Part shown: piece by piece, positions 1-60,829 of the stretch | Layout: every line of letters begins with the position of its first letter | Numbering within the stretch: the first letter of the stretch is position 1 | IMG/VR virus record: IMGVR_UViG_3300049014_000001 | Coordinates: 24,956-88,955 of that record | Strand: one strand, 5' to 3' | From: a virus | Lineage: Duplodnaviria; Heunggongvirae; Uroviricota; Caudoviricetes | Length of the DNA: 64,000 nucleotides | Notes under the pieces: generated by a model | Database searches by the model: none | Seen by the model: only the letters and a program-made list of their open reading frames with translations | Told to the model about the DNA's origin: nothing | Translations under genes and position numbers: made by a program

Positions 1-983
1 CAGTCAGGGTCAGGATACGTTTCACTTGGAACCGAGTGAGCCAAGTCCCATGAACGTACACGTCCTGAAACCTCTGGCGGTGCAAACTGTACTTTATTCA
101 GCCAGCTACGGTTAAATACGCTGCTACCTTCTGGAACAGCAGTCCATGAACCATGCAAGAATCGAAGCTGCGATACACGAGTACCCGATTTCAAGTTCGC
201 CAAATAGCCGGGGTTATTCTTCAACAGGACAGGATTTGAATACACGTCCATTGGAATAAACCTGAATGAGGTAGGGTGATAATCCTTTTCCTTATCCATT
301 CCGAAGCCATGCTTTTCAAACAGATCGTCGTAGCTATCTCCCCAAACTACCTTACCATTCAATACCATGAACCATCGGGTAATATTTTCAGTACCCGGAC
401 GAGGAACACCTGTATCTGGATCAAGGCAATATTGAACGAATGGGAACAGCCAGCTATTGCGGTTCGGGTTACAGGTAATGGTCATCCCCAGCTTACCTTT
501 GTAACGAGCACCACGGCAACGCTCTTTCAATGCTAGAATCTGCTCAAGCGTGAATTCCGCTCCCTCGTCAACGATAATGTTTGTAGCCTGCCATCCCTGC
601 ACCTCAGTAAGGTCTGCTGGCATAGCAACGAACTTAACGATTGCTCCATTAGGGAAGTGCCATTCAAGCGGCTGCAATTTGAATTCTGCACCGAACTGTT
701 TGAACAGATGCTTCGATTCGTCAACAAGGCCACCTACGGCCTTTAGAACAGGGTAGGTAAGACGAACAATAAGAACACGTGCATTCGGGTCTTCACAGAA
801 ATAAAGGGCCTTAAGGAGTGCCAGATAGCTTTTACCACCACCGGCACCGCCTCCAACAAGGAGCATGTCTGTCTGGTTATCTACCAGCATCAGACGTTGT
901 TTTTCGGAGCAAGGGCCAAGAACTACTTGTTCTTCTTCGTGAGCTTGCTCAACTGCTTCTACGATTTTCTTTTTCCTAGCCAT
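1..983 (-). CDS. terL: Terminase large subunit, N-terminal ATPase part (gene continues beyond left edge of window)
   Basis: Minus-strand ORF starting ATG at 981-983 and running off the window edge, so absent from the ORF track. Translation MARKKKIVEAV... contains Walker A LLVGGGAGGGKSY and Walker B IIVDEGAEF typical of TerL. Confidence 0.8.
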   Translation of the reverse strand, partial: MARKKKIVEAVEQAHEEEQVVLGPCSEKQRLMLVDNQTDMLLVGGGAGGGKSYLALLKALYFCEDPNARVLIVRLTYPVLKAVGGLVDESKHLFKQFGAEFKLQPLEWHFPNGAIVKFVAMPADLTEVQGWQATNIIVDEGAEFTLEQILALKERCRGARYKGKLGMTITCNPNRNSWLFPFVQYCLDPDTGVPRPGTENITRWFMVLNGKVVWGDSYDDLFEKHGFGMDKEKDYHPTSFRFIPMDVYSNPVLLKNNPGYLANLKSGTRVSQLRFLHGSWTAVPEGSSVFNRSWLNKVQFAPPEVSGRVRSWDLAHSVPSETYPDPD

Positions 984-1010: not shown

Positions 1011-1105
1011 TAGTTAGTTAATCTTGGCAAACCCTCAAGGAATCAAACCTTGTCCATGCACGGCTTTGGAGGCTGGCTGCATATCATATGCTAGGGCTTA
1101 TTGTC

Positions 1106-1182
1106 TGGATACGGAGGTGAGAGTCGAACTCACACTTGATAGGGTCAAAACCTACTGCCTCTGCCAATTGGGCTACTCCGCA
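1106..1182 (-). tRNA. tRNA-Gln (anticodon TTG)
   Basis: Reverse complement folds as a cloverleaf: acceptor TGCGGAG/CTCCGTA, T-arm GTGAG-TTCGACT-CTCAC, anticodon loop TTTTGAC, 3' CCA encoded. Confidence 0.7.
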
Positions 1183-1191
1183 TTAGAATTC

Positions 1192-1267
1192 TGGTGGTGA
1201 AGGATGGGTTCGAACCATCGACCAATGCCTTATCAAGACACTGCTCTACCGACTGAGCTACATCACC
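1192..1267 (-). tRNA. tRNA-Ile (anticodon GAT)
   Basis: Reverse complement GGTGATGTAGCTCAGTCGGTAGAGC...TTGATAA...GGTTCGAACCC...CCA; canonical D and T arms. Confidence 0.8.
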
Positions 1268-1378
1268 ATTCGGCACGGTTACTTTTACCGCGAAGCCATG
1301 TACTTTAGTACCATCACGCCGTTCTTCGCTACGTATCAAATCTACGGCCAACCTATGGACTGCCTCATGATGCAGTTA

Positions 1379-1473
1379 TGGCGGAGGAAGTGAGGCTCAA
1401 ACTCACACACCCCTTTCGGAGCCTTCGGTTTTCAAGACCGCTGCCGCTAGGTCAACGCTCGGCTAATTCCCCC
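1379..1473 (-). tRNA. Class II tRNA, probably Ser (anticodon TGA); acceptor and T-loop slightly atypical
   Basis: Reverse complement has Ser-like D arm GCCGAGCG, anticodon loop CTTGAAA, a long variable arm and CCA; T-loop reads TTTGAGC. The hand fold is imperfect. Confidence 0.45.
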
Positions 1474-1626
1474 CATGTTCTGGCGGAAGACTGACATCCC
1501 GACTGCCATGCGCTTGAAGCACACCAAAGGCTTAGCAAGCCCCGCCAGCGCCCCGGCTGGTTAATCTTCCATGTATTTGAATAATAGCACTACTTCCTCG
1601 TTTTGTCAAGCAGGTAGTGCTACCTA

Positions 1627-1950
1627 TCACTTGGTGATGTCCTGCAACATCTGGAACACACCCTTTGTTACTGTGAATTTCTTCGCCTGTGCATCAGTCA
1701 CTTCAATGTCGAAGTAGAAAATTCCAACGTTGTTTGCTTGCGTATCGTCCATAGAGAACTCCACAACTCCATTCGTCGGAGTTGCCACCGTACCATTCAA
1801 CTGAAACACTTGCTGAGTTGCGTCCACAGGATTACTCTGTTTGTTCACTGTCAGCTTGATTACACACCCGGTGAGATTCAACGGGGAACCTGCGTCTGAC
1901 AGGAACAGAGAGAATGGCTTAGTATCCCCTCTGAACCTTTCAATATTCAT
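1627..1950 (-). CDS. Hypothetical virion-associated protein
   Basis: ORF in track. The better start is the second Met (MNIERF) preceded by GAGAGG RBS, directly downstream of the tail-fibre-like genes. Confidence 0.55.
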   Translation of the reverse strand: MNIERFRGDTKPFSLFLSDAGSPLNLTGCVIKLTVNKQSNPVDATQQVFQLNGTVATPTNGVVEFSMDDTQANNVGIFYFDIEVTDAQAKKFTVTKGVFQMLQDITK

Positions 1951-1960
1951 ATTACCTCTC

Positions 1961-2785
1961 TTAGATAATGCTTGCACCGAAACTACCAGAGATAATTTCA
2001 GCTTTGATTTGATTGATCTGCCGTGCTGAGTAGTTACCAGTCAGGAGCGTTACACTCACACCGCCTCCAGACACTACAAGCCCACTCTGACTGCCATCGC
2101 TCATTACTCCGTTCACCGTGCAGGAACCAGAAGCGTTACAAATCGTTTCAACGATGGTGTGCGTAATGGCCTGCGCTACAGAATTTGCATCAGCACTCCC
2201 TGCTGTAGCCACAATGCATTGCATCTCCGCTGTGACCGTAGACACTCCCGATGCTGAACAAAGCGTCTGAAGGATAGCTTGAGTAACAGCGTTAGCCGAG
2301 CTTGAACCTTCAGATGAACAGTCCATCTGCTCAATTTCGGTCGGTGGAACTGCTGCATCAGTTTCAGCTTGCGCTGTAGACGTTCCGCTAGACGAACACA
2401 CAACCATGACGATCTGCTGCGTGGTAGCACTAGCTTGAGAAGTGCCTACAGAGGCCCCTACAACGCCCCAGATCGCACGAACAGCAGCAGATACGGTTCC
2501 TGCTCCAGACGATGCTCCGTTAGTCTGTGAGATGGCATTTAACATTGCAGCACCTACACTGCTACCTGAACTCGCACAGGATGTTCCAATAATCGCTGCT
2601 GTGGTGCTTCCGGCAGATGACGTTCCTGTTGCAGAGCAATTACTTGCCCACACTACCTGCATCTGAGCGGCAGCAGATGAACTTCCAGCACTAGCCCCAC
2701 TAAGAGAAATTACTTCGAAGCTTTCAGTCTCAAGGCTAAACAGGCCAAGGGGAGTAACCCCAAGTGAAGAAAGTCCAAGTGCCAT
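1961..2785 (-). CDS. Tail-fibre-like protein, Ser/Gly/Ala/Thr-rich low complexity
   Basis: 274-aa ORF with long runs of S/G/A/T/V and repeated CSxSG motifs typical of fibre shafts; sits in the structural cluster. Confidence 0.55.
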   Translation of the reverse strand: MALGLSSLGVTPLGLFSLETESFEVISLSGASAGSSSAAAQMQVVWASNCSATGTSSAGSTTAAIIGTSCASSGSSVGAAMLNAISQTNGASSGAGTVSAAVRAIWGVVGASVGTSQASATTQQIVMVVCSSSGTSTAQAETDAAVPPTEIEQMDCSSEGSSSANAVTQAILQTLCSASGVSTVTAEMQCIVATAGSADANSVAQAITHTIVETICNASGSCTVNGVMSDGSQSGLVVSGGGVSVTLLTGNYSARQINQIKAEIISGSFGASII

Positions 2786-2786
2786 G

Positions 2787-3287
2787 TTATACTCCCGGCC
2801 AACCAGCGTTGTAGTCGTATTGGCAGATTTGTTCGAATGAAGTCATCGCTGCGATGTTATCTCGGTGACGACCATCAACGCCTCCGATATTCGCCTCAAT
2901 AGCTGACAATCTTGCAGAGTTACCTTCTACTTTCGTCACCAAAGCTTCCAATGTAATATTTCTTGCAGTGGCTTCGATATTCAACATAGGACACTGTGCT
3001 GCGTCTCCTGTGGCTCTGTACTTAGCTGCCTCTGCTGCCTTGATCGACCAACTAGCCATCTCACCTACGCTTACAGAGGCAACCACAGCATCACGAAGCC
3101 CTTTGGCTTTCTTTAGAACCTCTGTGATAGCGTATGTCTTTGCATCTTGCACAGAGTAGCCATCGATAATAGCTTGTACGGCTGTATCGTTAGATGAAAC
3201 CCACACGCCATCTTTTTGCATCAGCCAATGTCCAGCACGAGAAATAGCTTCGTGAAGCCCTGCTCCTTTTTCTGTATATGTAATCAT
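2787..3287 (-). CDS. Hypothetical protein (tail-fibre-associated; start re-set to MITYTEK)
   Basis: The track ORF begins inside the upstream gene. The internal ATG at 3285-3287 follows stop TAA at 3290-3292 of the upstream gene. Confidence 0.5.
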   Translation of the reverse strand: MITYTEKGAGLHEAISRAGHWLMQKDGVWVSSNDTAVQAIIDGYSVQDAKTYAITEVLKKAKGLRDAVVASVSVGEMASWSIKAAEAAKYRATGDAAQCPMLNIEATARNITLEALVTKVEGNSARLSAIEANIGGVDGRHRDNIAAMTSFEQICQYDYNAGWPGV

Positions 3288-3289
3288 AA

Positions 3290-4162
3290 TTAATAGTAGA
3301 TAATAGGAAGAGGTGCGAACTGCCCCGGACTCACGCTTGTAACAGTAGGCATGGTACTCGGCAAAGATGTCCATCCACCTGTCATGGCACTGCACGTAGC
3401 GTAGACATTAGGCTGGCCGGGGTCAGTTACACCCAAAGGCCCAGTTTGTGCTAGCGTTGTGTTAGCTGCTCTCAGCGTAACTGCTACGCTTGAAACTACT
3501 CCTAGATAATACCAACCCGGAGGAATCTGACTCTTATTCCCAACTGGCGAAGCTGTCTTCACACCCGTTGTGTCTGTACGCAAATCTCCTGATTCCATTA
3601 CCAGTGGCCCTGCCGATCCGTCAGGAAGCACAGGATAGAATCCAAGACGAACTTTGTCCGTAGACGTTCCACCCGCTGTAGTGACCTGTACACCTAGTCC
3701 AGAAATGCCTTTACCAGCCTCAACACGACATCCAAGTACGAGCATGACATTCGCTGTCAGCCCTTTAGTGTTTGCCACGTTAATATATGGATAAGGAGTA
3801 CATCCTCTATGTGCAGCATTACTGATTGCTGCTGGTACTGCATTAACAATACCCGCATTAGCTGGAATTGCGCAGACAACTTTATATGTTCCTGCTCCCA
3901 AGTTAACTGCGGTAGGGGATACGCTTGTTAGCACTCCACTTACCATAGTCTGGATAATAGCAATTCGCTGCAACGTAGTAGAGTCTGAAAGTTTTCCAAT
4001 CCCTACTTCAACTGGTGTTCCATCACTTTTAAGAATCTCGTAATAGAAAGGCTGTCCAATGGCGAATTGATCTGCGAAAGTCGAATAATTAGTGACAGTA
4101 GCAAGAGTCAAATCTCCAGTACCAGTAGTTGTGGTTGTTTGATAGACCCAATTCGCCAGCAT
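3290..4162 (-). CDS. Tail fibre / receptor-binding protein candidate
   Basis: 290-aa ORF; N-terminus MLANWVYQTTTTTGTGDLTL resembles fibre N-termini; T/G/V-rich beta-type composition. Confidence 0.55.
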   Translation of the reverse strand: MLANWVYQTTTTTGTGDLTLATVTNYSTFADQFAIGQPFYYEILKSDGTPVEVGIGKLSDSTTLQRIAIIQTMVSGVLTSVSPTAVNLGAGTYKVVCAIPANAGIVNAVPAAISNAAHRGCTPYPYINVANTKGLTANVMLVLGCRVEAGKGISGLGVQVTTAGGTSTDKVRLGFYPVLPDGSAGPLVMESGDLRTDTTGVKTASPVGNKSQIPPGWYYLGVVSSVAVTLRAANTTLAQTGPLGVTDPGQPNVYATCSAMTGGWTSLPSTMPTVTSVSPGQFAPLPIIYY

Positions 4163-4164
4163 GA

Positions 4165-4608
4165 TTAATCCTCAGTTACCAGATTGGCAGCAGTGGTTAC
4201 GCGTGGAATAACTCCAGCAGCCATAGTTACGTTAGGAGTCGCAGTTCCTTTGTAAAGAATCTTGCCTGCTCCTGAGCTAGCCGTACCAATACTGAAGTGA
4301 GTAATAGCAGCACCCGGAGATGCCGTGCAAGCAGGGAAGTCTAGATTATTAACTAGATTCACGGCATTAGCTGTGACAGTAAATCCTCCAGTTGTTCGGG
4401 CTACGGCCATTCGCGTATATCCAGTGTATGTGGTTTCGTTTGTCGTTTGATCGCCAGTTTCGCCGGGGTCTGCTGTATGCAGTGCAAAATATAGGCTACC
4501 GGCAGCGGCAGATGGTTGAAGTCCCGAAGCATCCCCGATAAGAGGAATTGCTACGTTGTTGAATACCAGTTTCAGGTAGTCATTTTCGAAGGTATTACCT
4601 TTTGACAT
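4165..4608 (-). CDS. Hypothetical structural protein
   Basis: 147-aa ORF, first gene after the tRNA-array terminator; G/T/A-rich. Confidence 0.55.
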   Translation of the reverse strand: MSKGNTFENDYLKLVFNNVAIPLIGDASGLQPSAAAGSLYFALHTADPGETGDQTTNETTYTGYTRMAVARTTGGFTVTANAVNLVNNLDFPACTASPGAAITHFSIGTASSGAGKILYKGTATPNVTMAAGVIPRVTTAANLVTED

Positions 4609-4629
4609 ATTACGTCCTTTTTGAGATAA

Positions 4630-4664
4630 AGAAAAAGCCCGTAACCTTTTAAGGCACGGGCTTG
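4630..4664 (-). terminator. Intrinsic terminator after tRNA array (minus strand)
   Basis: aaaaagcccgtaaccttttaaggcacgggctt: 8-bp GC stem then U-run on the minus strand. Confidence 0.55.
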
Positions 4665-4699
4665 GTGTTTGAGGACGTTAACCACACTGTCCTCGTGTG

Positions 4700-4772
4700 T
4701 GGAACCAAACCAAGGAGTTGAACCTTGTATCTGCGGTTCGTAGCCGCTGAGCCGATATCCGTCGGGTCTGGT
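4700..4772 (-). tRNA. tRNA-Arg (anticodon ACG), short D-loop
   Basis: T-arm CAAGG-TTCAACT-CCTTG, acceptor ACCAGAC/GTTTGGT, anticodon loop CTACGAA, CCA encoded. Confidence 0.6.
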
Positions 4773-4780
4773 ATTGTTCT

Positions 4781-4854
4781 TGGACACGCTAGCGGGATTT
4801 TAACCCGCCTACGGAGCTTTGCAGGCAACTACCTAGTCACTCGGCCATAGCGTG
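4781..4854 (-). tRNA. tRNA-like element, identity unresolved
   Basis: Perfect acceptor CACGCTA/TAGCGTG and CCA, T-arm GCGGG-TTAAAAT-CCCGC, but the anticodon arm does not fold by hand. Confidence 0.35.
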
Positions 4855-4859
4855 CGTTC

Positions 4860-4942
4860 TGGTGGACTATATCAGGAATCGAACCCGACTTCCCCCGCCC
4901 TACTACCAAGATGTATGGTTAGCGGGTAAATAGCCCATAGTC
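4860..4942 (-). tRNA. tRNA-like element, identity unresolved
   Basis: T-arm TCGGG-TTCGATT-CCTGA and acceptor-like ends GACTATG/TATAGTC; the interior is irregular. Confidence 0.35.
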
Positions 4943-5016
4943 TGGTACTCCGTGAAAGAATCGAACTTTCGTACTCGCCGTGTAAAGACGACGTTCTACC
5001 ATTGAACTAACAGAGC
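4943..5016 (-). tRNA. tRNA-Val (anticodon TAC)
   Basis: GCTCTGT TA GTTC-AATGGTA-GAAC, anticodon arm TCGTC-TTTACAC-GGCGA, T-arm GAAAG-TTCGATT-CTTTC, ACCA 3' end. Confidence 0.75.
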
Positions 5017-5274
5017 ATTGTTCGTGGTTCTTTATTATCCCTTACGAGGATTATTCTTCAACCGGCTAAACGGACTCTTCAATCTAACCCGGACCATTGG
5101 CTAGAGAGGCTACTATACTGCATACGCGTACGTTGCAGTTACGTTTGGTCGTGAGTACGTACCATCTAAGCTTTCACCGCAAGACCCATACGCGCCCATG
5201 CACGAGCTAACGCTGCCCTCCTTGCAACTCCTACTTACTTAGCGGCCCAGTTGCGAACTGGCCTCACGATTGAC

Positions 5275-5351
5275 TTGGTATTGCATAGCGGATTCGAACC
5301 CCTATCCACGGATTGAAAGTCCATGTGTCCTAACCATTAGACGAATGCAAT
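5275..5351 (-). tRNA. tRNA-Glu (anticodon TTC)
   Basis: D arm GTCT-AATGGTTA-GGAC, anticodon arm ATGGA-CTTTCAA-TCCGT, T-loop TTCGAAT, CCA. Confidence 0.7.
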
Positions 5352-5358
5352 ATAAATT

Positions 5359-5445
5359 TGGTGCAGTGACTAGGATTTGAACCTAGACGGAACTAGCCGA
5401 CCTGCGGGTTACAGCCGCGTACCCTACCGAATGGGTGTTCACTAC
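5359..5445 (-). tRNA. tRNA-Tyr (anticodon GTA), class II with long variable arm
   Basis: 87 nt, acceptor GTAGTGA/TCACTGC, anticodon loop CTGTAAC, T-arm CTAGG-TTCAAAT-CCTAG, CCA. Confidence 0.65.
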
Positions 5446-5454
5446 ATTGTTTCT

Positions 5455-5529
5455 TGGTGCACCCGGTTGGTAACGCTCCAACCTCTTGAGGGTTTCAATC
5501 TCACACTAATCTATCTCAGTTACAGGTGC
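5455..5529 (-). tRNA. tRNA-Phe-like (anticodon GAA) with non-canonical T-loop
   Basis: Acceptor GCACCTG/CGGGTGC, D arm ACTG-AGATAGAT-TAGT, anticodon loop TTGAAAC, but the T-loop reads AGCGTTA instead of TTCRANN. Confidence 0.5.
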
Positions 5530-5546
5530 ATAAATGTTCTTAGTTG

Positions 5547-5621
5547 TGGGGTGAGCACTGGGAATTGAACCCAGATAAACGCCTTCACAGGGCGCGTCAC
5601 TAACCGTTGTGATATGCCCAC
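5547..5621 (-). tRNA. tRNA-His (anticodon GTG)
   Basis: D arm TCAC-AACGGTTA-GTGA, anticodon arm GCGCC-CTGTGAA-GGCGT, discriminator C, CCA. Confidence 0.75.
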
Positions 5622-5643
5622 AACTAAAAACATTCTAATACTT

Positions 5644-5731
5644 TGGTACGCGTAGTTGGAATCGAACCAACTCTGGACTTGCGTCTCGGTAGATTAAAAG
5701 TCTACTGCCTACCCACTTCGGCATTACGCGT
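5644..5731 (-). tRNA. Class II-scaffold tRNA with Lys-type anticodon loop CTTTTAA (anticodon TTT)
   Basis: 88 nt; perfect acceptor ACGCGTA/TACGCGT, 3-bp D stem, anticodon arm GTAGA-CTTTTAA-TCTAC, ~17-nt variable stem-loop, T-arm GTTGG-TTCGATT-CCAAC, A73, CCA. Confidence 0.55.
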
Positions 5732-5822
5732 ATAAAACAGCCCTACGCTACAACGGCCACCATTGGAAGAATCCAACACAATGATATAGACGTTACACCG
5801 CAACTTCTGTCAGGCTGTATAT

Positions 5823-5906
5823 TGGTACACAAGGCGAGACTTGAACTCGCAATCCCGAAGGCCACAGGGTTTGAGCCTGCTGCGTATGCCGTTCCGCCAC
5901 TCGTGC
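5823..5906 (-). tRNA. tRNA-Leu (anticodon CAA), class II
   Basis: 84 nt; D stem GCG/CGC, anticodon arm GCAGG-CTCAAAC-CCTGT, long variable arm, T-arm GCGAG-TTCAAGT-CTCGC, CCA. Confidence 0.7.
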
Positions 5907-6034
5907 ATTGTTTAATTTGACTAGGCTATCCTCACGTCGTCTTACTCTTGGATATGCGATACCACTTTGTATGGAGCCGACAGACGATCCGCCCCGTACT
6001 AGGTTCCCTCCGCTAAGAGGCATCAGTCAAAACT

Positions 6035-6118
6035 TGGTAGGCTAGGAGGGATTCGAACCCTCAAAGGCCCTGCTTCTAAGGCAGGTAGGTGTACCAGATT
6101 TCCATTAGCCACCAGCCC
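6035..6118 (-). tRNA. tRNA-like, possibly Leu (anticodon TAG) with irregular D region
   Basis: Anticodon arm CCTGC-CTTAGAA-GCAGG, T-arm GAGGG-TTCGAAT-CCCTC and acceptor GGGCTGG/CTAGCCT are clear; about 7 extra nt lie between the acceptor and anticodon stem. Confidence 0.45.
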
Positions 6119-6274
6119 ATTATATTCTGGCTACAGTTTTGTTCAGGTCGTAGCCACCTGTCCTTGTCGGGAGTTTCCGTCCCATACGGGCCGAAACAGA
6201 TTGTAGATGGCGCTATCGCCAGATCGGACGCACTGCCGTACAGTATCGGAGTTTAACCGTACATCTACAAAACT

Positions 6275-6350
6275 TGGCGCGGGCGACAGGATTCGAACCT
6301 GCAACGAACGGCTTGGAAGGCCGACACTCTGCCACTTGAGCTACGCACGC
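6275..6350 (-). tRNA. tRNA-Gly (anticodon TCC)
   Basis: GCGTGCG TA GCTC-AAGTGGCA-GAGT, anticodon loop CTTCCAA, T-arm GCAGG-TTCGAAT-CCTGT, GCCA end. Confidence 0.75.
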
Positions 6351-6413
6351 ATTGTATTTGCTAGCATACTAACCTACTAGCGGGTGTACCCATCACACTA
6401 CTGGGCCATAACT

Positions 6414-6490
6414 TGGCGCGATGTATCGGTTTCGAACCGATGACCCTCTGCTCGACAGGCAGGCGCTCTAACCATCTGAGCTAACACCGC
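6414..6490 (-). tRNA. tRNA-Asp (anticodon GTC)
   Basis: GCGGTGT TA GCTC-AGATGGTTA-GAGC, anticodon arm CCTGC-CTGTCGA-GCAGA, T-loop TTCGAAA, GCCA. Confidence 0.8.
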
Positions 6491-6498
6491 ATATATTC

Positions 6499-6574
6499 TG
6501 GCTGTGAGGGTAGGCTTCGAACCTACATCAACCTGATTAACAGTCAGGAGCTTTACCAATTAAGCTACTTCACA
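6499..6574 (-). tRNA. tRNA-Asn (anticodon GTT)
   Basis: D arm GCTT-AATTGGTA-AAGC, anticodon arm CCTGA-CTGTTAA-TCAGG, T-arm GTAGG-TTCGAAG-CCTAC, CCA. Confidence 0.75.
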
Positions 6575-6697
6575 ATTGTTCTGTACGGGCTTTGCACCAC
6601 ATTTGAGAGTTTCAGATTCATGCCACTCTTAACTTTGTTCCAGCTACCTCTTCCGTCCCACAGCGCAGGCTTACAGGTTGATTCTCTGGACGTGCTC

Positions 6698-6773
6698 TGG
6701 TTGCGAAGAGTGGGAGTCGAACCCACGACACGAAGGTTATGAGCCTCCTGTTCTACCGCTGAACTATCTCGCA
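6698..6773 (-). tRNA. tRNA-Met (anticodon CAT; elongator, Ile2 or initiator not resolved)
   Basis: D arm GTTC-AGCGGTA-GAAC, anticodon arm GGAGG-CTCATAA-CCTTC, T-arm GTGGG-TTCGACT-CCCAC, 3' GCAACCA; acceptor pairing slightly irregular by hand. Confidence 0.65.
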
Positions 6774-6779
6774 ATTGTT

Positions 6780-6854
6780 TGGCTCCCTGTGTTGGAATTG
6801 AACCAACGTTGTCCATCATTAGCCGGTTTGCGCACAAGTCCGGGTTAAACAGGA
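6780..6854 (-). tRNA. tRNA-like element, identity unresolved
   Basis: T-arm GTTGG-TTCAATT-CCAAC, CCA and acceptor-like ends present; the interior does not fold into standard D and anticodon arms. Confidence 0.3.
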
Positions 6855-6941
6855 AATTATTCGGCCCCTAGATTCTGTTTGTCGGCTCAAGGGTGGCCTC
6901 AGTGAGGGTAGATTAACTCACGCCGCTTCCGCGATTGCTCT

Positions 6942-7021
6942 TGGTGGAGAACATCGGATTCGAACCGATCTGATTAGCCTACTTGCAAGGCAGGTGTCCA
7001 CTCCCAGCAGACCCGATCCCC
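6942..7021 (-). tRNA. tRNA-Ala (anticodon TGC)
   Basis: GGGGATC GG GTCT-GCTGGGAGT-GGAC, anticodon arm CCTGC-CTTGCAA-GTAGG, T-arm ATCGG-TTCGAAT-CCGAT, ACCA. Confidence 0.7.
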
Positions 7022-7140
7022 AATATTTGTTACGTAGTGCTACTATACTACATGCTCAACGATTTGTCAAGCATTTTGAATTCTGGTCAGGGTAGGTGGC
7101 TCTGCCCCACCGTCCTCTCGCTTCCAAGGCGAGCCGTCTA

Positions 7141-7566
7141 CTAGGCTGACAATATACCCTGAGTATTTAGTCCTGCATACCAATTAAATTGTTCAGCAGT
7201 TCTCATAGCATGACAGTTTGCACAAAGCACCTGACATTTAGCTATCTCTTCTTTAATTTTCTTCAAAGCCAGTCCACGCATTTGTGAAACGTTTGCAGAC
7301 TTTGTACTACGATCTATGTGATCGAACTGAAGGCAAGGAACCCTAGCTTCTCCACATTCAACACATGGGTGTTCCAGCAGATAGTCATACACGTATTGCC
7401 AATTGGCTTTACGTAACTCTAATTGTTGATCGTATTTAATTTGCTTCTTTTCCTCGCTTCTGTTTGCGTGATACTTTCTATCATACTCCCGCTTGCAAGG
7501 TCTACATAGTTTAGATCTTTGTCCGTATGGCTCGTACGCCACTTGGCACGAGCTACACGTTCTCAT
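7141..7566 (-). CDS. HNH homing-type endonuclease
   Basis: 141 aa; paired Cys clusters CSSC...CRPC...CVEC and HNH core FDHIDR...N...LCANCH; immediately flanks the tRNA array. Confidence 0.8.
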   Translation of the reverse strand: MRTCSSCQVAYEPYGQRSKLCRPCKREYDRKYHANRSEEKKQIKYDQQLELRKANWQYVYDYLLEHPCVECGEARVPCLQFDHIDRSTKSANVSQMRGLALKKIKEEIAKCQVLCANCHAMRTAEQFNWYAGLNTQGILSA

Positions 7567-7582
7567 ACGCCCTCAAGTTGTT

Positions 7583-7669
7583 TGGTGCTGCCTGTGTGAT
7601 TCGAACACACGTTGGGATTTCTCCGCTGGGTTACAAAGCCAGTGCCTTCAACCTCTCAGCCAAAGCAGC
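7583..7669 (-). tRNA. Class II-scaffold tRNA with anticodon loop TTTGTAA (anticodon TGT, Thr-type)
   Basis: 87 nt; acceptor GCTGCTT/AGGCAGC, Ser-like D arm TG-GCT-GAGAGGTTGAA-GGC, anticodon stem CTGG/CCAG, long variable stem-loop GGA-GAAA-TCC, T-arm GTGTG-TTCGAAT-CACAC, A73, CCA. Confidence 0.5.
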
Positions 7670-24766: not shown

Positions 24767-25303
24767 ATGGATTTTGATGTCCTGAATGAGGAAGTCTCTC
24801 TAAGAAAGAACCCAAAAATTCCCCAGTTGGCTTGGAAATTTGAGCTGTATGCTGGCTGGAACAATTTTGAAAATAGTTTGGTAGCACTACTTGACAAGCT
24901 ACAAAAACACAGGCAAGATGTCATCTTCGACCAATCAAAGGAGAAACTTATGAACGTAGTAGTAGCGATCATTGATGAAGCATTGTCCCGTCTGTGGAAC
25001 GGGGAAAACGAAAACGACTTCTACATTGAAGGCCAAGTTCAACTTGAACGTTATGCTTGTCATGCAGTAGTTAGGGGAGCAATGGTGGTGCTTGGCATGG
25101 ACTATGACAGTTCTCAAGCACATGACGAAACTCTGAAGATCACCAAACGCATTGAAGATCGTATTGAGTACTACTTCACTGCTACTTCCTACTTGCGGGA
25201 AAAGGATGAGAACTTTGATGAGTCCACAGTGTATGCCCAGAACTTCCGCAAGCAAATGCTGCTGGACATTCGTAACCAACTGATGGAAGAGGCCCAAGGA
25301 TGA
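24767..25303 (+). CDS. Hypothetical protein
   Basis: 178-aa track ORF; first gene of the long plus-strand block. Confidence 0.5.
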   Translation: MDFDVLNEEVSLRKNPKIPQLAWKFELYAGWNNFENSLVALLDKLQKHRQDVIFDQSKEKLMNVVVAIIDEALSRLWNGENENDFYIEGQVQLERYACHAVVRGAMVVLGMDYDSSQAHDETLKITKRIEDRIEYYFTATSYLREKDENFDESTVYAQNFRKQMLLDIRNQLMEEAQG

Positions 25304-25798: not shown

Positions 25799-26447
25799 AG
25801 CACAGGTAGAATTTGATTCGAAAGTAGTCATTCGTGGTGGCTTCCCAGCAGAAGACTACTCGCAGGAGGATATCAAGAATGAGCCGATGTTCTTCAACTG
25901 CGACTTGGATTTTGCTTATAAGCATGGAGGCGAAATTACGAGAGACTTCATCTATTTCATGCCGAGCGATTGGAGGGATAGCAACCCAGTGTTTGATTCC
26001 CGTGTTCATATGCTGATGAAGGATTGGTATCCTTGCATACCCGGCTGGCACCATGACGATATTCCACGCAACACTCCTACAGGGCAACCAAATTACGAGA
26101 ATCCAGCGTATCATTCGGAACACTTGCTGGGACTTGTGAATGCGGAAATCTGTCCAACTCTGTTCATTCAGGACAATGTTATTGTGACGGAGCCTGATAT
26201 CAACGGTCGCGTCTACCAGACGTGGGATGCAGAGATTCGTAGCAAGCAGTACAAAACGTATGAAGCTGAATCTGGTTTGTACCTGCAATTCAATGCAGAC
26301 ACTTTCCACACAGGTACGAAGGCTAAGGAACAAGGCTGGCGCTGGTTTGCTCGTGCATCACGTAATACAGACCGCCAGCGTACTATCACTAACGAAATCC
26401 GGCGTCAGGTTCAGGTATATCTTGAAACACCCGAAGCCGGATGGTAA
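25791..26447 (+). CDS. Hypothetical protein with HxD...H arrangement (cupin/2OG-oxygenase-like?)
   Basis: 218 aa; GWHHDD...FHTG. The oxygenase assignment is very tentative. Confidence 0.5.
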   Translation: MSEAQVEFDSKVVIRGGFPAEDYSQEDIKNEPMFFNCDLDFAYKHGGEITRDFIYFMPSDWRDSNPVFDSRVHMLMKDWYPCIPGWHHDDIPRNTPTGQPNYENPAYHSEHLLGLVNAEICPTLFIQDNVIVTEPDINGRVYQTWDAEIRSKQYKTYEAESGLYLQFNADTFHTGTKAKEQGWRWFARASRNTDRQRTITNEIRRQVQVYLETPEAGW

Positions 26448-27820
26448 CTAAGGAGAAAAGAATGACCCTGTACCAAATTGTAAAGAGCCTCCAGTCGGCT
26501 CAAGGCAACATCGCCAAGCAAGCCATCCTTGATGAAAACAAGGATAATCCACTGTTCAAGCAGTATATGAAGGCTACGTATGACGTAGGTATCAACTACT
26601 TCATCAAGAAGGCCCCGAAGGGACGTAACCATAACAATCTCGATTTCCGTAAAGCGGAGATTGATGAAGCTCTGTTCTATCTTGCTGAGCGTCGTCTCAC
26701 CGGAACTGATGCAAAAGAATGGCTGCAACGTATCATGGACTCGTTGAATCCTGAAGGCCAAGAGCTGATGTCTCTGATGATTGGGCGTTCTATTGGCGCA
26801 TCCGTTGGCGATACGATGGTGTTAAAAACTTGGCCTGATCTGTATTTCATTCCTCCTTACCAGCGCTGCTCACTGCTGGATAAGAAGGCTCGTGAACGCT
26901 TTGCGAAGCTGAAGAAGTTCTACGTACAGACCAAAGCCGATGGCTCGTTTGCGTACGTTGTAAAGCGTATGGATGGCACTGTGGATGTCATCACTCGTCA
27001 GGGCAGTAAGTACCCTCAATGGTTTGCTCAGAAGCTTGCGCATGGCCTTGCACCGGGTAAGGTGCTGGTGGGTGAACTGCTTGTGGACGAAAAGATGGAA
27101 GGCATGGGTATGCAATCGGTGGAGCGTAAGACTGCCAACGGGTTACTGAACTCCTTACTGAAGGATGGTGAAAAATTCGATGAATTCCGATACGTTGTGC
27201 GTATGGAAGCATGGGACTTGCTGACGCAAGAAGAGTTCGAAGCCGGAAAATCTTCTCGCACGTATGAAGAACGATTCGAAGTGCTGGAAACTGCCGTTGT
27301 GTTCGGTGGAAGTGGGAATCATATCTCGTGCATTTTCACCGAAATTGTAACATCGCTGGATGAAGCATTCGCTATCTACCAAGATCACTTGCAACGTGGA
27401 TTGGAAGGTTGTATCATCAAAGACCCTGCTTCCTTGTGGAAGGATGGCACTGCAAAGGACATCGTGAAACTGAAGATCAAGTTTCAAGTGGAGATGCGTG
27501 TCATCGGAATGTATGAGGGAGAGGGCAAGGCAAAGGGAATGCTTGGAGGTGTTGTTATTGTGTCTGAAGACTATGGCATTGAGTGCGCTTGTGGTTCTGG
27601 CTTTAGCGATGCCCAACGTAAAGAGTACTGGAACAAACCGGGACTCATTGAAGGTGAAGTGGTTGTTGTAGAAGCTAACGACATCACTCAGAGCCGGGAA
27701 GCAGGTAAGAAGCCTTCGTTATCTCTGCCGATTTTCGTAGAGGTACGAACCGATAAAACCGAAGCTGACACTACGGAGCGTATCTACGCTCAGTTGGAAG
27801 CTGCTAAACAAGGAGTGTAA
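26441..27820 (+). CDS. ATP-dependent DNA ligase
   Basis: 459 aa; nucleotidyltransferase motif I TKADGSFAYVV (KxDG) and downstream ligase-like motifs. Confidence 0.7.
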   Translation: MVTKEKRMTLYQIVKSLQSAQGNIAKQAILDENKDNPLFKQYMKATYDVGINYFIKKAPKGRNHNNLDFRKAEIDEALFYLAERRLTGTDAKEWLQRIMDSLNPEGQELMSLMIGRSIGASVGDTMVLKTWPDLYFIPPYQRCSLLDKKARERFAKLKKFYVQTKADGSFAYVVKRMDGTVDVITRQGSKYPQWFAQKLAHGLAPGKVLVGELLVDEKMEGMGMQSVERKTANGLLNSLLKDGEKFDEFRYVVRMEAWDLLTQEEFEAGKSSRTYEERFEVLETAVVFGGSGNHISCIFTEIVTSLDEAFAIYQDHLQRGLEGCIIKDPASLWKDGTAKDIVKLKIKFQVEMRVIGMYEGEGKAKGMLGGVVIVSEDYGIECACGSGFSDAQRKEYWNKPGLIEGEVVVVEANDITQSREAGKKPSLSLPIFVEVRTDKTEADTTERIYAQLEAAKQGV

Positions 27821-28456: not shown

Positions 28457-29116
28457 ATGACTGAACAAGTTTTTAAGGTAGGACAAAAAGTGAAGATCGT
28501 AGCGGCGGGTAGCGGTTGCCATCCACGAGACATCGGACAAACTGTGACCATCACTGGTATCAAGGCATACGGTGACGAAATGGGTGTGGAATACGATTGT
28601 AGAAACCTGTATGTTGAACAACTATCCTCTTCAGGCCGTTACGTAGCATCCGTACGGATGTTTGAACCAATCAAGGCTAACCTGAGCTTGCCTGTGTTCA
28701 CGGCTGAAGGCACTCCAGTGGAAATTATCACCGTATCTGGCCGTGACAAGAAGTTCCCAGTGCTGGCATACGAAGGTAAGGCTAAGCTGCCTTCGAAATA
28801 TACGCTGGAAGGCATCAGCAAGAGTGGTGAAGCTCGTCGCAACCTGACCAACGTCCAAGTGACAGATGAGCCTTCTGAGTACAAGGAAGAAGCTGTTGAG
28901 GAAGTAGTGCTGTATGCCAATCTGTACGACGATTCGGAGCGTGGCCTTCGTCGTCTTGATCTTGGCAACGAGTTGTACGAGTCCGTAAATGCAGCCACTG
29001 AAAGCTACAAGGAAGGTCGCATCGAGAACAAGAAACACCCTAAGCGTATCGGTGTGGCAAAGGTAACTCTGGTGAAGGGCAAACTGCCTTCCCGTTTCAA
29101 CAAGGAGGCTAACTAA
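28457..29116 (+). CDS. Hypothetical protein
   Basis: 219-aa track ORF with canonical UTR. Confidence 0.5.
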   Translation: MTEQVFKVGQKVKIVAAGSGCHPRDIGQTVTITGIKAYGDEMGVEYDCRNLYVEQLSSSGRYVASVRMFEPIKANLSLPVFTAEGTPVEIITVSGRDKKFPVLAYEGKAKLPSKYTLEGISKSGEARRNLTNVQVTDEPSEYKEEAVEEVVLYANLYDDSERGLRRLDLGNELYESVNAATESYKEGRIENKKHPKRIGVAKVTLVKGKLPSRFNKEAN

Positions 29117-30270
29117 TGGCTGAAATCAAACGTAAGATGGCGTCTGTACGCCGTATTGACAAGCTGGAAGCTATTCCCGGTGCAGACAAGATCGAAACCG
29201 CATGGATTGGTGGTTGGCCTGTCGTCGTGAAGAAAGGTGAATTCGCTCAAGGTGATCTGGCAGTGTACTTCGAAATCGATTCGTGGGTTCCGAACAAGGT
29301 TGCTCCGTTCCTGACCAAGGAAGGCTATGCCCCGAAGGAATTCAACGGTGTGCAAGGTGAACGCCTGAAGACTATCAAGCTGCGTAAGCAACTGTCACAA
29401 GGTCTGCTGCTGCCTCTGCATACTCTCCCAGCTAGTGTCGGCCCAAATTGCGACGAAGGTGAGGATGTCACAGAGGCTCTTGGTGTGCAGAAGTGGGAGC
29501 AGGAAGAAAAGACTCCTAACATGCCTCAGAGCCAGAAGACCCGTTCGTTCCCGTATTTCATCCGTAAGACGGATCAAGAACGTGCTCAGAACTACGGTCA
29601 CATGATTGCACAAAATCTGGACACTGAGTTTGAAGTGACCGTGAAGAAGGATGGTTCCAGCATCACCGTGTTCCGTGTGAACCCAAGTAGCCCGTATTAC
29701 GAAGATGCTAAACTGATGGTAAAGGGCAAGAAGACCTTCTGGGAACGGGTTGTAGCGTTCTTCAAGCGTGAACAAGACAAGCCAGTGTACGGCATTTGCT
29801 CTCGTAACGTTCTGCTGCCGTTCGAAGGCGATAGTAACTTCCACAAGGCTGCTAAGAAGCTGCTGCCATTCATGGAAGACTTTAATGAAGGCTCCGTAGC
29901 TATCCAAGCTGAGCTGGTGGCACCTGACATTCAAGGCAACTACGAGAAGGTAAGTGGTGTTGAAGTTCACATCTTTGATGTGTTCGACATTGATAAGCAA
30001 GAGTACAAAACTCCACGTGAGCGTACCAGCTTCCTTGGTGTGATGTTTGCACCTAGCTACGTACCACACGCTACCATCGTAGATAAAGGTACACTGCGTA
30101 ACATCCTGCAACTGAAGGAAGGTGAAGACTTCATGGAAAAGCTGCTTACCTACGCTTCCGGCGAAGGTGATAACGAAGGCGTCATGCGTGAAGGTGTGGT
30201 GTTCAAGGCAATGGACAAAGACTTTTCGTTCAAGGTAGTATCGAACGAATACCTGCTGAAGAAAGGCTAA
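29116..30270 (+). CDS. RNA-ligase-like nucleotidyltransferase (KxDG; Rnl family candidate)
   Basis: 384 aa; motif VKKDGSSITVF; similar in size to T4 RnlA; distinct from the DNA ligase at 26441. Confidence 0.55.
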   Translation: MAEIKRKMASVRRIDKLEAIPGADKIETAWIGGWPVVVKKGEFAQGDLAVYFEIDSWVPNKVAPFLTKEGYAPKEFNGVQGERLKTIKLRKQLSQGLLLPLHTLPASVGPNCDEGEDVTEALGVQKWEQEEKTPNMPQSQKTRSFPYFIRKTDQERAQNYGHMIAQNLDTEFEVTVKKDGSSITVFRVNPSSPYYEDAKLMVKGKKTFWERVVAFFKREQDKPVYGICSRNVLLPFEGDSNFHKAAKKLLPFMEDFNEGSVAIQAELVAPDIQGNYEKVSGVEVHIFDVFDIDKQEYKTPRERTSFLGVMFAPSYVPHATIVDKGTLRNILQLKEGEDFMEKLLTYASGEGDNEGVMREGVVFKAMDKDFSFKVVSNEYLLKKG

Positions 30271-45224: not shown

Positions 45225-45301
45225 GGGACGTTAGTTCAGTGGATAGAACACGGGACTTCTACTCCCGGCTGTCGAGGGTTCGAATCCTTCACGTCCTACC
45301 A
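45225..45301 (+). tRNA. tRNA-Arg (anticodon TCT)
   Basis: GGGACGT TA GTTC-AGTGGATA-GAAC, anticodon arm CGGGA-CTTCTAC-TCCCG, T-arm GAGGG-TTCGAAT-CCTTC, ACCA; an isolated plus-strand tRNA. Confidence 0.8.
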
Positions 45302-59170: not shown

Positions 59171-60829
59171 ATGAAAATCAAACCACACCTGATTCTGGAT
59201 TCGTACAAGCTGGGCCACATCGACCAATACCCTGAAGGTACTCAGTACGTGTACTCCAACCTGACCGCTCGTTCTGCTGCTCACGCTAAGATGGGCAACA
59301 TGTTCGACAACAAGGTGGTGTTCTTCGGTCTGCAAGGTTTCATTCAAGAATTCCTGATCGAAGCATGGAACGAACACTTCTTCGCTCGTCCTAAAGACGA
59401 AGTGATTGTGGAGTACAAGCGCCGTTGTGATAACTTCCTCGGCCCTGATGCTGTTCGTACTGACCACATCGCAGCACTGCATGATCTTGGCTACCTGCCT
59501 ATCTTCATCAAAGCTCTGCCTGAAGGCTCCCGTGTGAACATCAAGGTTCCGTTCCTGACGATTCGTAACACGCTGCCTCAGTTCTACTGGCTGACGAACT
59601 ATCTGGAAACCGTGCTGTCGGATGAACTGTGGCAAATGTGTACCGTAGCTACCATTACCTACGAGTACCGTCGAATCCTGAACAAATATGTCGAACTGAC
59701 TGGCTCGTCCAAAGAGTTCGCTGACTGGCAGATTCATGACTTCTCGATGCGTGGTATGGCTGGCTGGCATGCTTCGGCTAAGGCCGGTGCTGCTCACTTG
59801 CTGTCGTCCCGTGGCACTGATACTCTGCCAGCAGTGGATTATTTGGAACAGTACTACGGTGCTGATGTTACGAAGGAACTGGTTGCTGGCTCCGTACCAG
59901 CTACGGAACACTCCGTAATGTGCATGGGTGGCATGGGTGAAGCAGAATTGGAAACCTTCCGTCGTCTGATTACCAAGACCTACCCACAAGGTATCGTGTC
60001 TATCGTGTCGGATACGTGGGACTTCTGGACTGTCATCACCAAGTACACGGTGGCACTGAAGGAAGAAATCTTGAACCGTAAGGAGAACGCTCTAGGCATG
60101 GCTAAAGTTGTGTTCCGTCCTGACTCCGGTGATCCTGTGAAGATCGTTGCTGGTCTGCGTGTGAAGGATATTTCTGATGCACGTTTCAATACAGATGCCG
60201 ATGGCAAAGTGTTCGTCAACGTTGACGATGTACTTAAACTTGTTGAGAGCTACGATGCGGTACGTATCTTCGGTAAAGTGTTTGAATTCGATGCAGCTCG
60301 TGGCTGGGGAATCTTCCTCGGTCGAGAAGTAGCTGACCACGAAGTGAAAGGTGCTGTGGAATGCCTGTGGGATGTGTTCGGTGGTGACATCACTGAGAAG
60401 GGCTACAAGACGCTGAACCAGCGTGTGGGCCTGATCTACGGGGATAGCATCACTCTGGAACGTGCAGAACAAATCCTGCAACGCCTGAGGGATAAAGGCT
60501 TCTCGGCCGGTAACATCGTGTTCGGTGTAGGCTCGTTCACCTACCAGTACATGACGCGTGACACCTTCGGCATGGCTGTAAAGGCTACGTGGGGTCAAGT
60601 GAACGATGAAGCTCGTGACATTCAGAAAGACCCTGCTACTGGCGATGGTATGAAGAAGTCTGCTACCGGCCTGTTGCGTGTTGAAAAAGTGGATGGCAAC
60701 TACTACCTGTTCGACCGTCAGAATATCGTAGAAGAGATGTACGGTGAACTTAAAGAAGTATTCCTTGACGGTAAGGCATACAACACTCAGAGCTTTGCTC
60801 AGATCGTAGAACGTCTGAAGAAAGACTAA
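59171..60829 (+). CDS. Nicotinamide phosphoribosyltransferase-family enzyme (Nampt/NadV or Namat)
   Basis: 552 aa; N-terminus ILDSYKLGHIDQYPEGTQYVYSNLTARS matches the Nampt start (DSYK...QYP); type II PRTase length. Confidence 0.7.
   Translation: MKIKPHLILDSYKLGHIDQYPEGTQYVYSNLTARSAAHAKMGNMFDNKVVFFGLQGFIQEFLIEAWNEHFFARPKDEVIVEYKRRCDNFLGPDAVRTDHIAALHDLGYLPIFIKALPEGSRVNIKVPFLTIRNTLPQFYWLTNYLETVLSDELWQMCTVATITYEYRRILNKYVELTGSSKEFADWQIHDFSMRGMAGWHASAKAGAAHLLSSRGTDTLPAVDYLEQYYGADVTKELVAGSVPATEHSVMCMGGMGEAELETFRRLITKTYPQGIVSIVSDTWDFWTVITKYTVALKEEILNRKENALGMAKVVFRPDSGDPVKIVAGLRVKDISDARFNTDADGKVFVNVDDVLKLVESYDAVRIFGKVFEFDAARGWGIFLGREVADHEVKGAVECLWDVFGGDITEKGYKTLNQRVGLIYGDSITLERAEQILQRLRDKGFSAGNIVFGVGSFTYQYMTRDTFGMAVKATWGQVNDEARDIQKDPATGDGMKKSATGLLRVEKVDGNYYLFDRQNIVEEMYGELKEVFLDGKAYNTQSFAQIVERLKKD

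Follow-up and report, generated by a model that had tools for sequence, protein, structure and literature searches.

In bacteria, a long variable arm is a textbook property of the transfer RNAs (tRNAs) for leucine, serine, tyrosine and selenocysteine. A class II shape occurs with other anticodons in nematodes, whose nev-tRNAs carry glycine or isoleucine anticodons and, according to work by Hamashima and colleagues from 2012, are reportedly charged with leucine. The bacterial allo-tRNAs of Mukai and colleagues (2017) have 8/4 or 9/3 acceptor/T helices and the identity elements of seryl-tRNA synthetase (SerRS), and they insert serine (PMC7609411). The tRNA that concerns us here, tRNA-Lys(UUU), is known as a target of tRNA-cutting nucleases: PrrC and RloC cut it (PMC2610378, PMC10264068), a bacterial Schlafen nuclease cleaves it within its anticodon arm (PMC13056530), and AriB of the PARIS system cuts it between nucleotides 40 and 41, as well as cutting the tRNAs Thr(UGU) and Asn(GUU) (PMC12409363). 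We analyzed a stretch of 64,000 nucleotides from a virus of the Caudoviricetes (IMG/VR record IMGVR_UViG_3300049014_000001, positions 24,956 to 88,955), hereafter the window, in which a single gene combines a lysine anticodon loop with a long variable arm. This focal gene is a real tRNA that is conserved in phages, and we consider it probable that it is the phage's own working tRNA-Lys to which an arm has been added.

An earlier reading of the window's letters (the original prediction) had folded the gene by hand, and every element of that fold was borne out by ARAGORN, Rfam and RNAfold, with an encoded CCA end besides. An ARAGORN call of tRNA-Lys(ttt), 88 nucleotides in length, coincides precisely with minus-strand positions 5644..5731 and puts the anticodon at tRNA position 34, with UCU at positions 39-41. 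The lysine anticodon loop CUUUUAA on a long-variable-arm scaffold is thus confirmed. The 5' half of the RNA reads ACGCGUA-AU-GCC-GAAGUGGGUA-GGC-A-GUAGA-CUUUUAA-UCUAC, and the 3' half reads CGAGACGCAAGUCCAGA-GUUGG-UUCGAUU-CCAAC-UACGCGU-A-CCA, where CGAGACGCAAGUCCAGA is the variable region. RNAfold, unaided, returns a cloverleaf plus a variable-arm hairpin (-25.7 kcal/mol, z = -2.15). The general tRNA family of Rfam (RF00005) gives 5649..5730 a score of 32.7 bits (gathering score 29; E = 8e-4 for 9 kb), and R1, a covariance model that we built from other long-arm tRNA-Lys genes, gives 59 bits. A class II structure has a variable region of more than 10 nucleotides that forms a stem-loop; here the region has 17 nucleotides and contains the hairpin GAC-GCAA-GUC. 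The 3-base-pair (bp) D stem had also been taken as a class II hallmark, but this does not hold, as near-identical D arms are found in phage Gln, Cys, His and Gly tRNAs. The likeness of the focal tRNA to class II comes from the variable arm alone.

The same tRNA-Lys gene is held, at 97% identity, by two other IMG/VR contigs (L001 and L002), whose flanks are 74-78% identical to the window and whose tRNA arrays are syntenic with that of the window: Leu(CAA), Lys, His, then Tyr, Glu, Val, Ala (80 nucleotides) and Cys. The sole two substitutions within the gene keep their pairs, A1-U72 becoming G1.U72 and U6-A67 becoming U6.G67. A remoter homologue (L070) shares A8-U9 and the D arm with the focal gene, whereas its variable stem is GGGG-AAA-CCCC where the focal gene has GAC-GCAA-GUC: the stem is wholly changed and its pairing compensated. 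L001, L002 and L070 all share the A8 of the focal gene. Because the gene is conserved above its flanks, its substitutions keep pairs and it scores 59 bits with R1, we regard it as more than a chance resemblance.

Which amino acid would such a tRNA carry? The identity set of bacterial class II lysyl-tRNA synthetase (LysRS) is U34, U35, U36 and A73, and the enzyme is said to depend mainly on the anticodon, U35 above all, and also on A73 (work attributed to McClain 1990, Tamura 1992 and Normanly 1990). The focal gene has the UUU anticodon as well as A73, and on balance we take it for a cognate lysine tRNA, for which charging with lysine is predicted as the most likely outcome. We parsed 2678 distinct well-formed phage tRNAs and, judging from their sequences, the acceptor-end identity elements of long-arm phage tRNAs agree with the anticodon, whether this stands for Lys, Asn, Thr, Met, Cys, Trp, Gly or another isotype. 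The discriminator base is U73 in 10/10 long-arm Cys(GCA) and 7/7 long-arm Gly(UCC) tRNAs (57/59 and 61/73 in their short-arm counterparts) and G73 in 17/19 long-arm Asn(GUU) and 9/9 long-arm Trp(CCA) tRNAs (90/98 and 65/67). Thr(UGU) has U in 60 and A in 16 of the long-arm genes, and U in 35 and A in 17 of the short-arm ones. For Lys(UUU), the 86 long-arm genes have A in 71, U in 15 and G in none, and the 96 short-arm genes have A in 91 and U in 5. The first acceptor pairs follow the anticodon too: long-arm Thr(UGU) has the acceptor elements of threonyl-tRNA synthetase, G1-C72 (76/77) and C2-G71 (77/77), as opposed to the G2-C71 of Ser(UGA) tRNAs (89/100), and the 7 long-arm Gly(UCC) tRNAs all have G1-C72 and C2-G71 along with U73.

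The use of the codons was checked on a small scale in the window's ribonucleotide reductase, aligned with two solved homologues (37% overall identity). Lysine stands opposite AAA codons at 6/8 and 4/7 positions and opposite AAG codons at 8/25 and 4/22; the other residues opposite AAG vary and are for the most part polar (Ser once per alignment, Leu once in the first and twice in the second), and the AAA positions give no sign of Ser or Leu. No tRNA-Lys besides the focal gene was found in the window, and among the IMG/VR matches listed (see below) the long-arm gene is the only tRNA-Lys(UUU) in 57/89 loci and in 21/35 arrays with at least 12 tRNAs.

That the shape of this tRNA is unusual, a class II-like outline with a lysine anticodon, was rightly recognized in the original prediction, yet it is not a one-off: IMG/VR holds at least 89 long-arm tRNA-Lys(UUU) genes. 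We scanned IMG/VR with a pattern (CTTTTAA, 20-30 nucleotides, GGTTCGAWTCC), counted an ARAGORN tRNA of at least 82 nucleotides as long-arm, and filtered the ARAGORN calls for well-formed stems. Counts from the pattern scans are among the matches listed, except for the complete scan of Asp(GUC), so the abundance figures are rough; the scans rest on one T-loop motif, carried by about 25-60% of phage tRNAs, and the statistics ignore relatedness. The scan gave 89/121 long-arm tRNA-Lys(UUU) genes and, after the window, L001 and L002 had been added, 81/85 distinct sequences were well formed. With the same pattern and one genome per bacterial or archaeal species, 7/120 of the matches listed were such tRNAs, and 3 of these 7 lie within phage-like arrays of 9 to 14 tRNAs. 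One isolate bacterial genome (Thalassovita litoralis DSM 29506, NZ_FXTO01000028.1; L305) has, adjoining a tRNA-Cys, an 86-nucleotide tRNA with a Leu-like D arm (GUGGCGGAAUGGUAGACGCA), the anticodon UUU and A73. Among cultured phages, two jumbo phages have a long-arm tRNA-Lys(CUU), of 87 nucleotides in Caulobacter phage CcrBL9 and 89 in Xanthomonas phage XacN1, and the searchable literature does not remark on their added arm. Long-variable-arm tRNAs of this kind are a large and diverse class, almost confined to phages and apparently undescribed.

The arm of this class is a folded element. The variable region of the long-arm tRNA-Lys genes has 12-23 nucleotides, often with a GNRA-type hairpin loop, and a hairpin of at least 3 bp is found in 81% of the 81 distinct sequences as against 30% of shuffled variable regions. 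In a gapless alignment of 8 sequences picked for having the hairpin, all three pairs of the variable stem change on both sides and every cell pairs; when 150 sequences are aligned to the covariance model, 94% of the variable helix is paired, and each of its pairs shows 41-71 double changes. Most members have 1 nucleotide, the hairpin and then 3 or 4 nucleotides, where the focal gene has 3, the hairpin and 4. The bodies that carry the arm are diverse, with Tyr-like or Ser-like D arms in some and ordinary class I D arms in others. In a comparison made for possible descent from Leu, Ser or Tyr tRNAs, the nearest neighbors of the D region and of the whole body (minus the anticodon loop and the variable region) were mixed, with His, Gln, Cys, Tyr, Leu and Phe tRNAs among them. 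In L046 and L047, for example, the long-arm tRNA-Lys(UUU) has the D arm GUUCCCGAGCGGUCAAAGGGA and a variable region ending in CUUC, close to bacterial tRNA-Tyr. These sequences suggest that some members may have arisen from tRNA-Tyr by anticodon change, and others, with class I D arms (L017, L074, L011), by insertion of a hairpin.

Long arms are distributed very unevenly over the isotypes. In loci that we fetched via unrelated anchors, 59/1040 (about 6%) of the phage tRNAs other than Leu, Ser and Tyr reach 82 nucleotides. The fraction is 4/64 for Lys(UUU), 8/58 for Asn and 0/46 for Asp, and it is highest for Ile(UAU) (6/20, with variable regions of 22-25 nucleotides); Glu(UUC), Trp, Val and Cys have long arms as well, and none were seen in these loci on Asp, Pro, Ala, Gly or Arg. 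The cultured Stenotrophomonas phage DLP_6 (L122, KU682439.2) has both a tRNA-Ile(UAU) at 196..290, 95 nucleotides by ARAGORN and 92 as annotated, and at 2988..3073 a long-arm tRNA-Asn(GUU) of 86 nucleotides that GenBank labels 'tRNA-OTHER / Pseudo-GTT'. In the pattern scans, the ratio of long-arm tRNA to non-tRNA was 118:5 for Asn(GUU), 89:32 for Lys(UUU), 84:30 for Met(CAU), 76:39 for Thr(UGU) (120 matches listed) and 11:46 for Phe(GAA), and it was 22:48 for Asp(GUC) in the complete scan of 77 hits. The ratio spans 24 (Asn) to 0.24 (Phe), and among the matches listed long arms are 10-100 times commoner on some anticodons than on others. Since Asp, Asn and Lys are all served by class IIb synthetases, synthetase docking does not explain this unevenness. 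The long-arm Lys and Thr forms co-occur weakly and not symmetrically: in Lys-anchored loci, 9/29 Thr(UGU) genes have the long form, as against 2/22 Lys(UUU) genes in Thr-anchored loci. Near-confinement to phages on clearly different tRNA bodies suggests that long arms may have been gained repeatedly under selection.

Based on these findings, we propose a mechanism for the focal tRNA. The gene would be transcribed within the minus-strand tRNA array and processed to an 88-nucleotide tRNA whose CCA end is already encoded. Host LysRS would charge it with lysine via the UUU anticodon and A73, and the tRNA would then decode AAA and AAG as lysine in translation. The 3-bp hairpin with its GCAA loop would provide the class II-like outline without Ser, Leu or Tyr identity. 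Beyond this point our proposal becomes speculative. The arm may alter the shape beside the 3' strand of the anticodon stem and the D loop, a step that we put forward tentatively; PARIS AriB, PrrC/RloC and bacterial Schlafen might bind or cut the armed tRNA poorly, which is possible but rather doubtful; and the phage could, at a similarly modest level of confidence, keep a lysine decoder when the host tRNA-Lys is destroyed. Extended to the class, the speculation is that the variable-arm hairpin on class I tRNAs is a general and repeatedly evolved phage counter-defence against tRNA-cutting nucleases, a proposal that we think possible rather than probable. The arm would cover the face formed by anticodon stem and D loop while cognate charging and decoding stay intact, which we likewise offer as a conjecture that may well fail.

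Several observations fit such protection. In an AlphaFold 3 model, the AriB dimer spans C40-A41 to U16-U17 of the D loop (PMC12409363). A hairpin emerging between nucleotides 44 and 48 lies on the face that AriB contacts in this model, and steric protection is therefore plausible. U39-C40 is kept in 56/86 long-arm but 34/96 short-arm phage tRNA-Lys (p = 1e-4, with kinship and host ignored), as would be expected if the arm substitutes for mutations in the stem. The focal tRNA reads U36-A-A-U39-C40-U41 and thus keeps the UAAUC core (nucleotides 36-40), with U in place of A at position 41. The two long arms of the window fall on Lys(UUU) and Thr(UGU), two prime AriB targets. A narrower version, in which long arms are concentrated on the PARIS targets Lys(UUU), Thr(UGU) and Asn(GUU), was considered and rejected: Met(CAU), for which no cutting by AriB was detected in vitro, is about as common in long-arm form as Lys(UUU) among the matches listed.

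The main alternative to this general shape-change hypothesis is that the focal gene is a working tRNA-Lys with a hairpin put into its 5-nucleotide variable loop, where folding has been kept just to avoid harm. The layout of 1 + 4 nucleotides around the hairpin is that of a class I variable loop of 5 nucleotides split in two, long arms occur on many isotypes without a single obvious logic, and the failure of the PARIS-specific prediction also fits a merely tolerated insertion. Tolerance would not account easily for an isotype distribution so strongly uneven and so independent of synthetase docking (Asp, Asn and Lys, above), or for the near-confinement to phages on different bodies that suggests repeated gain under selection. 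We regard tolerance as unlikely, though it deserves to be taken seriously.

An RNA acting outside translation, by occupying tRNA-Lys nucleases or being cut instead of host tRNA, is improbable. Such a decoy or sponge would profit from the retained UAAUC that AriB recognizes, and overexpressed viral tRNAs possibly compete with host tRNAs for AriB (PMC12409363). Yet the gene has a complete acceptor stem, A73, an encoded CCA, a T loop of canonical form and an anticodon loop of 7 nucleotides, which translation needs and a decoy does not, and the same architecture is found on many isotypes with cognate identity elements. The original prediction had tied the gene to anticodon nucleases that cut tRNA-Lys, and this tie is still plausible; a pure decoy is disfavored, since the long-arm gene is the only tRNA-Lys(UUU) both in most loci, as counted above, and in the window.

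It had further been suggested that the tRNA could be charged with Ser or Leu while decoding AAA/AAG. In its widest form this alternative has LeuRS, TyrRS or SerRS (leucyl-, tyrosyl- or seryl-tRNA synthetase) read the class II-like body and load Leu, Tyr or Ser, making AAA/AAG ambiguous. It draws on the facts that LeuRS and SerRS do not read the anticodon, that A73 fits both Leu and Tyr, that U35 is a Tyr determinant, and that some long-arm tRNA-Lys, such as that of L046, have D arms identical to tRNA-Tyr; the allo-tRNAs and the nev-tRNAs, reportedly charged with Leu, are precedents. The comparison with Ser and Leu tRNAs does not support charging by SerRS or LeuRS. Phage Ser tRNAs have mostly G73, a variable stem of 5-6 bp and 1 unpaired nucleotide between variable stem and T stem, whereas long-arm tRNA-Lys have a stem of about 3 bp, 3-4 unpaired nucleotides (Thr 3, Asn 3-4) and G73 in 0/86; the focal gene has A73, C2-G71, a 3-bp stem and a linker of 4. 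All phage Leu tRNAs counted have A73, as does the focal gene, and their linker has 2 nucleotides. E. coli-type LeuRS recognizes A73 together with the core pairs U8:A14 and A15:U48, and the window's own Leu(CAA) has U8, A15 and U48, where the focal tRNA has A8 and A48; the core pairs and the linker of 1-2 nucleotides are lacking in the focal gene, by rules that are E. coli-type and may not be those of the host. Bacterial TyrRS recognizes A73, U35 and G34; all but one of the phage Tyr tRNAs counted have A73, and their linker of 3 nucleotides resembles the 3-4 of long-arm tRNA-Lys; the focal gene has A73 and U35 but U at position 34. Class-wide, discriminator and first acceptor pairs follow the anticodon and not Ser, Leu or Tyr, AAA/AAG stand at conserved lysine positions, lysine codons are used normally, and the gene is the sole Lys tRNA in otherwise complete arrays. 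A mistranslating tRNA kept in at least 80 distinct sequences from dozens of unrelated contigs also seems costly, and we hold mischarging to be decidedly improbable. A decaying pseudogene or mis-called tRNA-like sequence, for which the low Rfam score and the GenBank 'Pseudo' flag on the similar long-arm tRNA-Asn of DLP_6 might speak, is very improbable given stems that all pair perfectly, conservation above the flanks, pair-keeping substitutions and more than 80 distinct relatives.

For the reading that we prefer, a working tRNA-Lys with an added arm, some points weigh on the other side. The focal gene scores low with Rfam, and it has A8 in place of the near-universal U8. Because tRNA-Tyr also has A73 and U35, and tRNA-Leu also has A73, the acceptor end does not for lysine alone exclude TyrRS or LeuRS, and charging of long-arm Lys by either may still be conceivable. 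The argument for lysine identity is partly by analogy with Cys, Gly, Asn, Trp and Thr. As for the evasion step, the U39-C40 contrast is weakened by a p value that ignores phylogeny and host, and the step failed its specificity test: long-arm Met(CAU), on which AriB showed no detectable cutting in vitro, is as frequent as Lys(UUU) among the matches listed, and Glu, Trp, Val and Cys have long-arm forms too.

The array that holds the focal gene covers nearly every amino acid once (Table 1). ARAGORN with default settings finds 15 tRNAs in it, with CCA encoded in 15/15; Ser(UGA), Tyr(GUA) and Leu(UAG), which were found by Rfam and relaxed ARAGORN, have encoded CCA too. Relaxed ARAGORN also proposes a Trp(CCA) and a Ser(GCU), neither of which is reported by Rfam. 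The second long-arm tRNA, Thr(UGU), is the sole tRNA-Thr in the window; it has G1-C72, C2-G71 and A73, and its anticodon stem ends at the bottom in a C.C mismatch. The tRNA-Ala(UGC) has 80 nucleotides, a length kept in L001 and L002, with a 3-bp D stem, an enlarged variable loop of about 9-10 nucleotides and the alanine identity pair G3.U70. The tRNA-Ala(UGC) of T5 is reported to be a preferred substrate of a bacterial Schlafen nuclease (PMC13056530). Several tRNAs of the array, including Lys and Tyr, have A8 in place of U8, and of 89 phage tRNA-Tyr genes in a wider sample, 17 have A and 19 have C at position 8. An HNH homing-endonuclease-like open reading frame lies between tRNA-Ala and tRNA-Thr.

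The rest of the window encodes phage replication and nucleotide metabolism: a family-A DNA polymerase, a primase-helicase, ribonucleotide reductase, thymidylate synthase, DNA ligase, an Rnl-type RNA ligase and NAMPT. The RNA ligase, two genes downstream of the ATP-dependent DNA ligase, may have a role in RNA or tRNA repair; no polynucleotide kinase/phosphatase was recognized near it in the window. NAMPT is an auxiliary gene of nicotinamide adenine dinucleotide (NAD) salvage and could bear on NAD-depleting host defences. Among the deposited phages of INPHARED we found no near DNA match to the window, and the closest cultured phages are Pseudomonas phages of about 98 kb, whose primase-helicase is 55% identical in amino acids. 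A single array was inspected, that of Pseudomonas phage vB_PpuM-Amme-3; it has no long-arm Lys or Thr, and this phage shares with the window just a short tRNA-Cys match.

Table 1. Coordinates of the focal gene, its parts and other features of the window
Feature	Coordinates	Strand	Details
tRNA-Lys(UUU) gene, class II-like shape	5644..5731	-	88 nt including encoded CCA; ARAGORN, Rfam, model R1
Acceptor stem, 5' strand	5725..5731	-	nt 1-7, ACGCGUA; 7 Watson-Crick pairs with 5648..5654
A8-U9 and D arm	5707..5724	-	3-bp stem GCC/GGC, 10-nt loop GAAGUGGGUA; sequence, RNAfold
Anticodon arm	5689..5705	-	GUAGA-CUUUUAA-UCUAC, 5-bp stem; anticodon UUU at 5696..5698
Variable region	5672..5688	-	17 nt: CGA, hairpin GAC-GCAA-GUC (5676..5685), CAGA; RNAfold
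T arm	5655..5671	-	GUUGG-UUCGAUU-CCAAC, 5-bp stem; sequence
Acceptor stem, 3' strand	5648..5654	-	UACGCGU; A73 at 5647, encoded CCA at 5644..5646; sequence
tRNA array holding the focal gene	1106..7669	-	ARAGORN, Rfam
tRNA-Ser(UGA), class II	1382..1472	-	Rfam/relaxed ARAGORN; missed by default ARAGORN
tRNA-Tyr(GUA), class II	5359..5445	-	Rfam/relaxed ARAGORN; missed by default ARAGORN
tRNA-Leu(UAG), class II	6035..6118	-	Rfam/relaxed ARAGORN; missed by default ARAGORN
tRNA-Thr(UGU)	7583..7669	-	87 nt, long variable arm GGA-GAAA-UCC; ARAGORN; Rfam 49.8 bits; R1 74.5 bits
tRNA-Ala(UGC)	6942..7021	-	80 nt
Proposed Trp(CCA)	1025..1099		Relaxed ARAGORN
Proposed Ser(GCU)	1500..1566		Relaxed ARAGORN
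HNH homing-endonuclease-like reading frame	7141..7566	-	PHROG 2255
ATP-dependent DNA ligase	26441..27820
RNA ligase	29116..30270	+	Pfam RNA_ligase PF09414; N-terminal PHA02142 OB domain; PHROG 968
tRNA-Arg(UCU)	45225..45301		Outside the array
NAMPT	59171..60829	+

Taken together, our survey indicates that phage tRNAs for Lys, Asn, Thr, Met and other class I amino acids are routinely armed and yet, as far as sequence can tell, retain the identity elements of their own isotype. Should charging follow this prediction, a long arm is tolerated by many synthetases, which would bear on the rules of tRNA identity and on how orthogonal tRNAs are designed. If the arm does protect against tRNA-targeting immunity, this would be a new type of phage counter-defence, and about 6% of phage tRNAs other than Leu, Ser and Tyr would be 'armoured.' Because pipelines label some such genes 'pseudo' or 'tRNA-OTHER,' phage tRNA repertoires are undercounted. 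The searchable full-text literature, which is thin on subscription journals, gave no account of long-arm phage tRNAs with class I identity, and the papers on evasion by phage tRNAs and the review of non-canonical tRNAs that we consulted do not mention long variable arms on phage class I isotypes.

How does the focal tRNA compare with the described systems? The viral tRNAs by which T5-type phages evade PARIS resemble it in being phage copies of nuclease-targeted tRNAs that lie in arrays and keep cognate identity. They have a class I shape and escape through point changes in the anticodon stem or loop (U39A, A41C), whereas the focal tRNA keeps U39-C40 and has an added hairpin; its resistance to AriB, unlike theirs, is a prediction. 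With the canonical bacterial class II tRNAs (Leu, Ser, Tyr) it shares the variable stem-loop, the 3-bp D stem and the 7/5 architecture, and with those for Leu and Tyr also A73; it differs from them in its UUU anticodon, a variable stem of just 3 bp, the lack of G73, and A8/A48 in place of U8/U48. The allo-tRNAs are likewise metagenomic long-variable-arm tRNAs whose anticodons do not match class II amino acids, but we rejected an allo-tRNA identity for the focal gene, which is 7/5, has A73, lacks Ser identity and is borne by a phage. The nev-tRNAs are eukaryotic and are said to be charged with Leu since LeuRS ignores the anticodon, whereas the acceptor elements of the phage class appear to follow it. 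The genes of CcrBL9 and XacN1 are, like the focal gene, long-arm tRNA-Lys, plainly annotated as tRNA-Lys in GenBank; they differ from it in having the anticodon CUU, and their bodies are unrelated to that of the focal tRNA.

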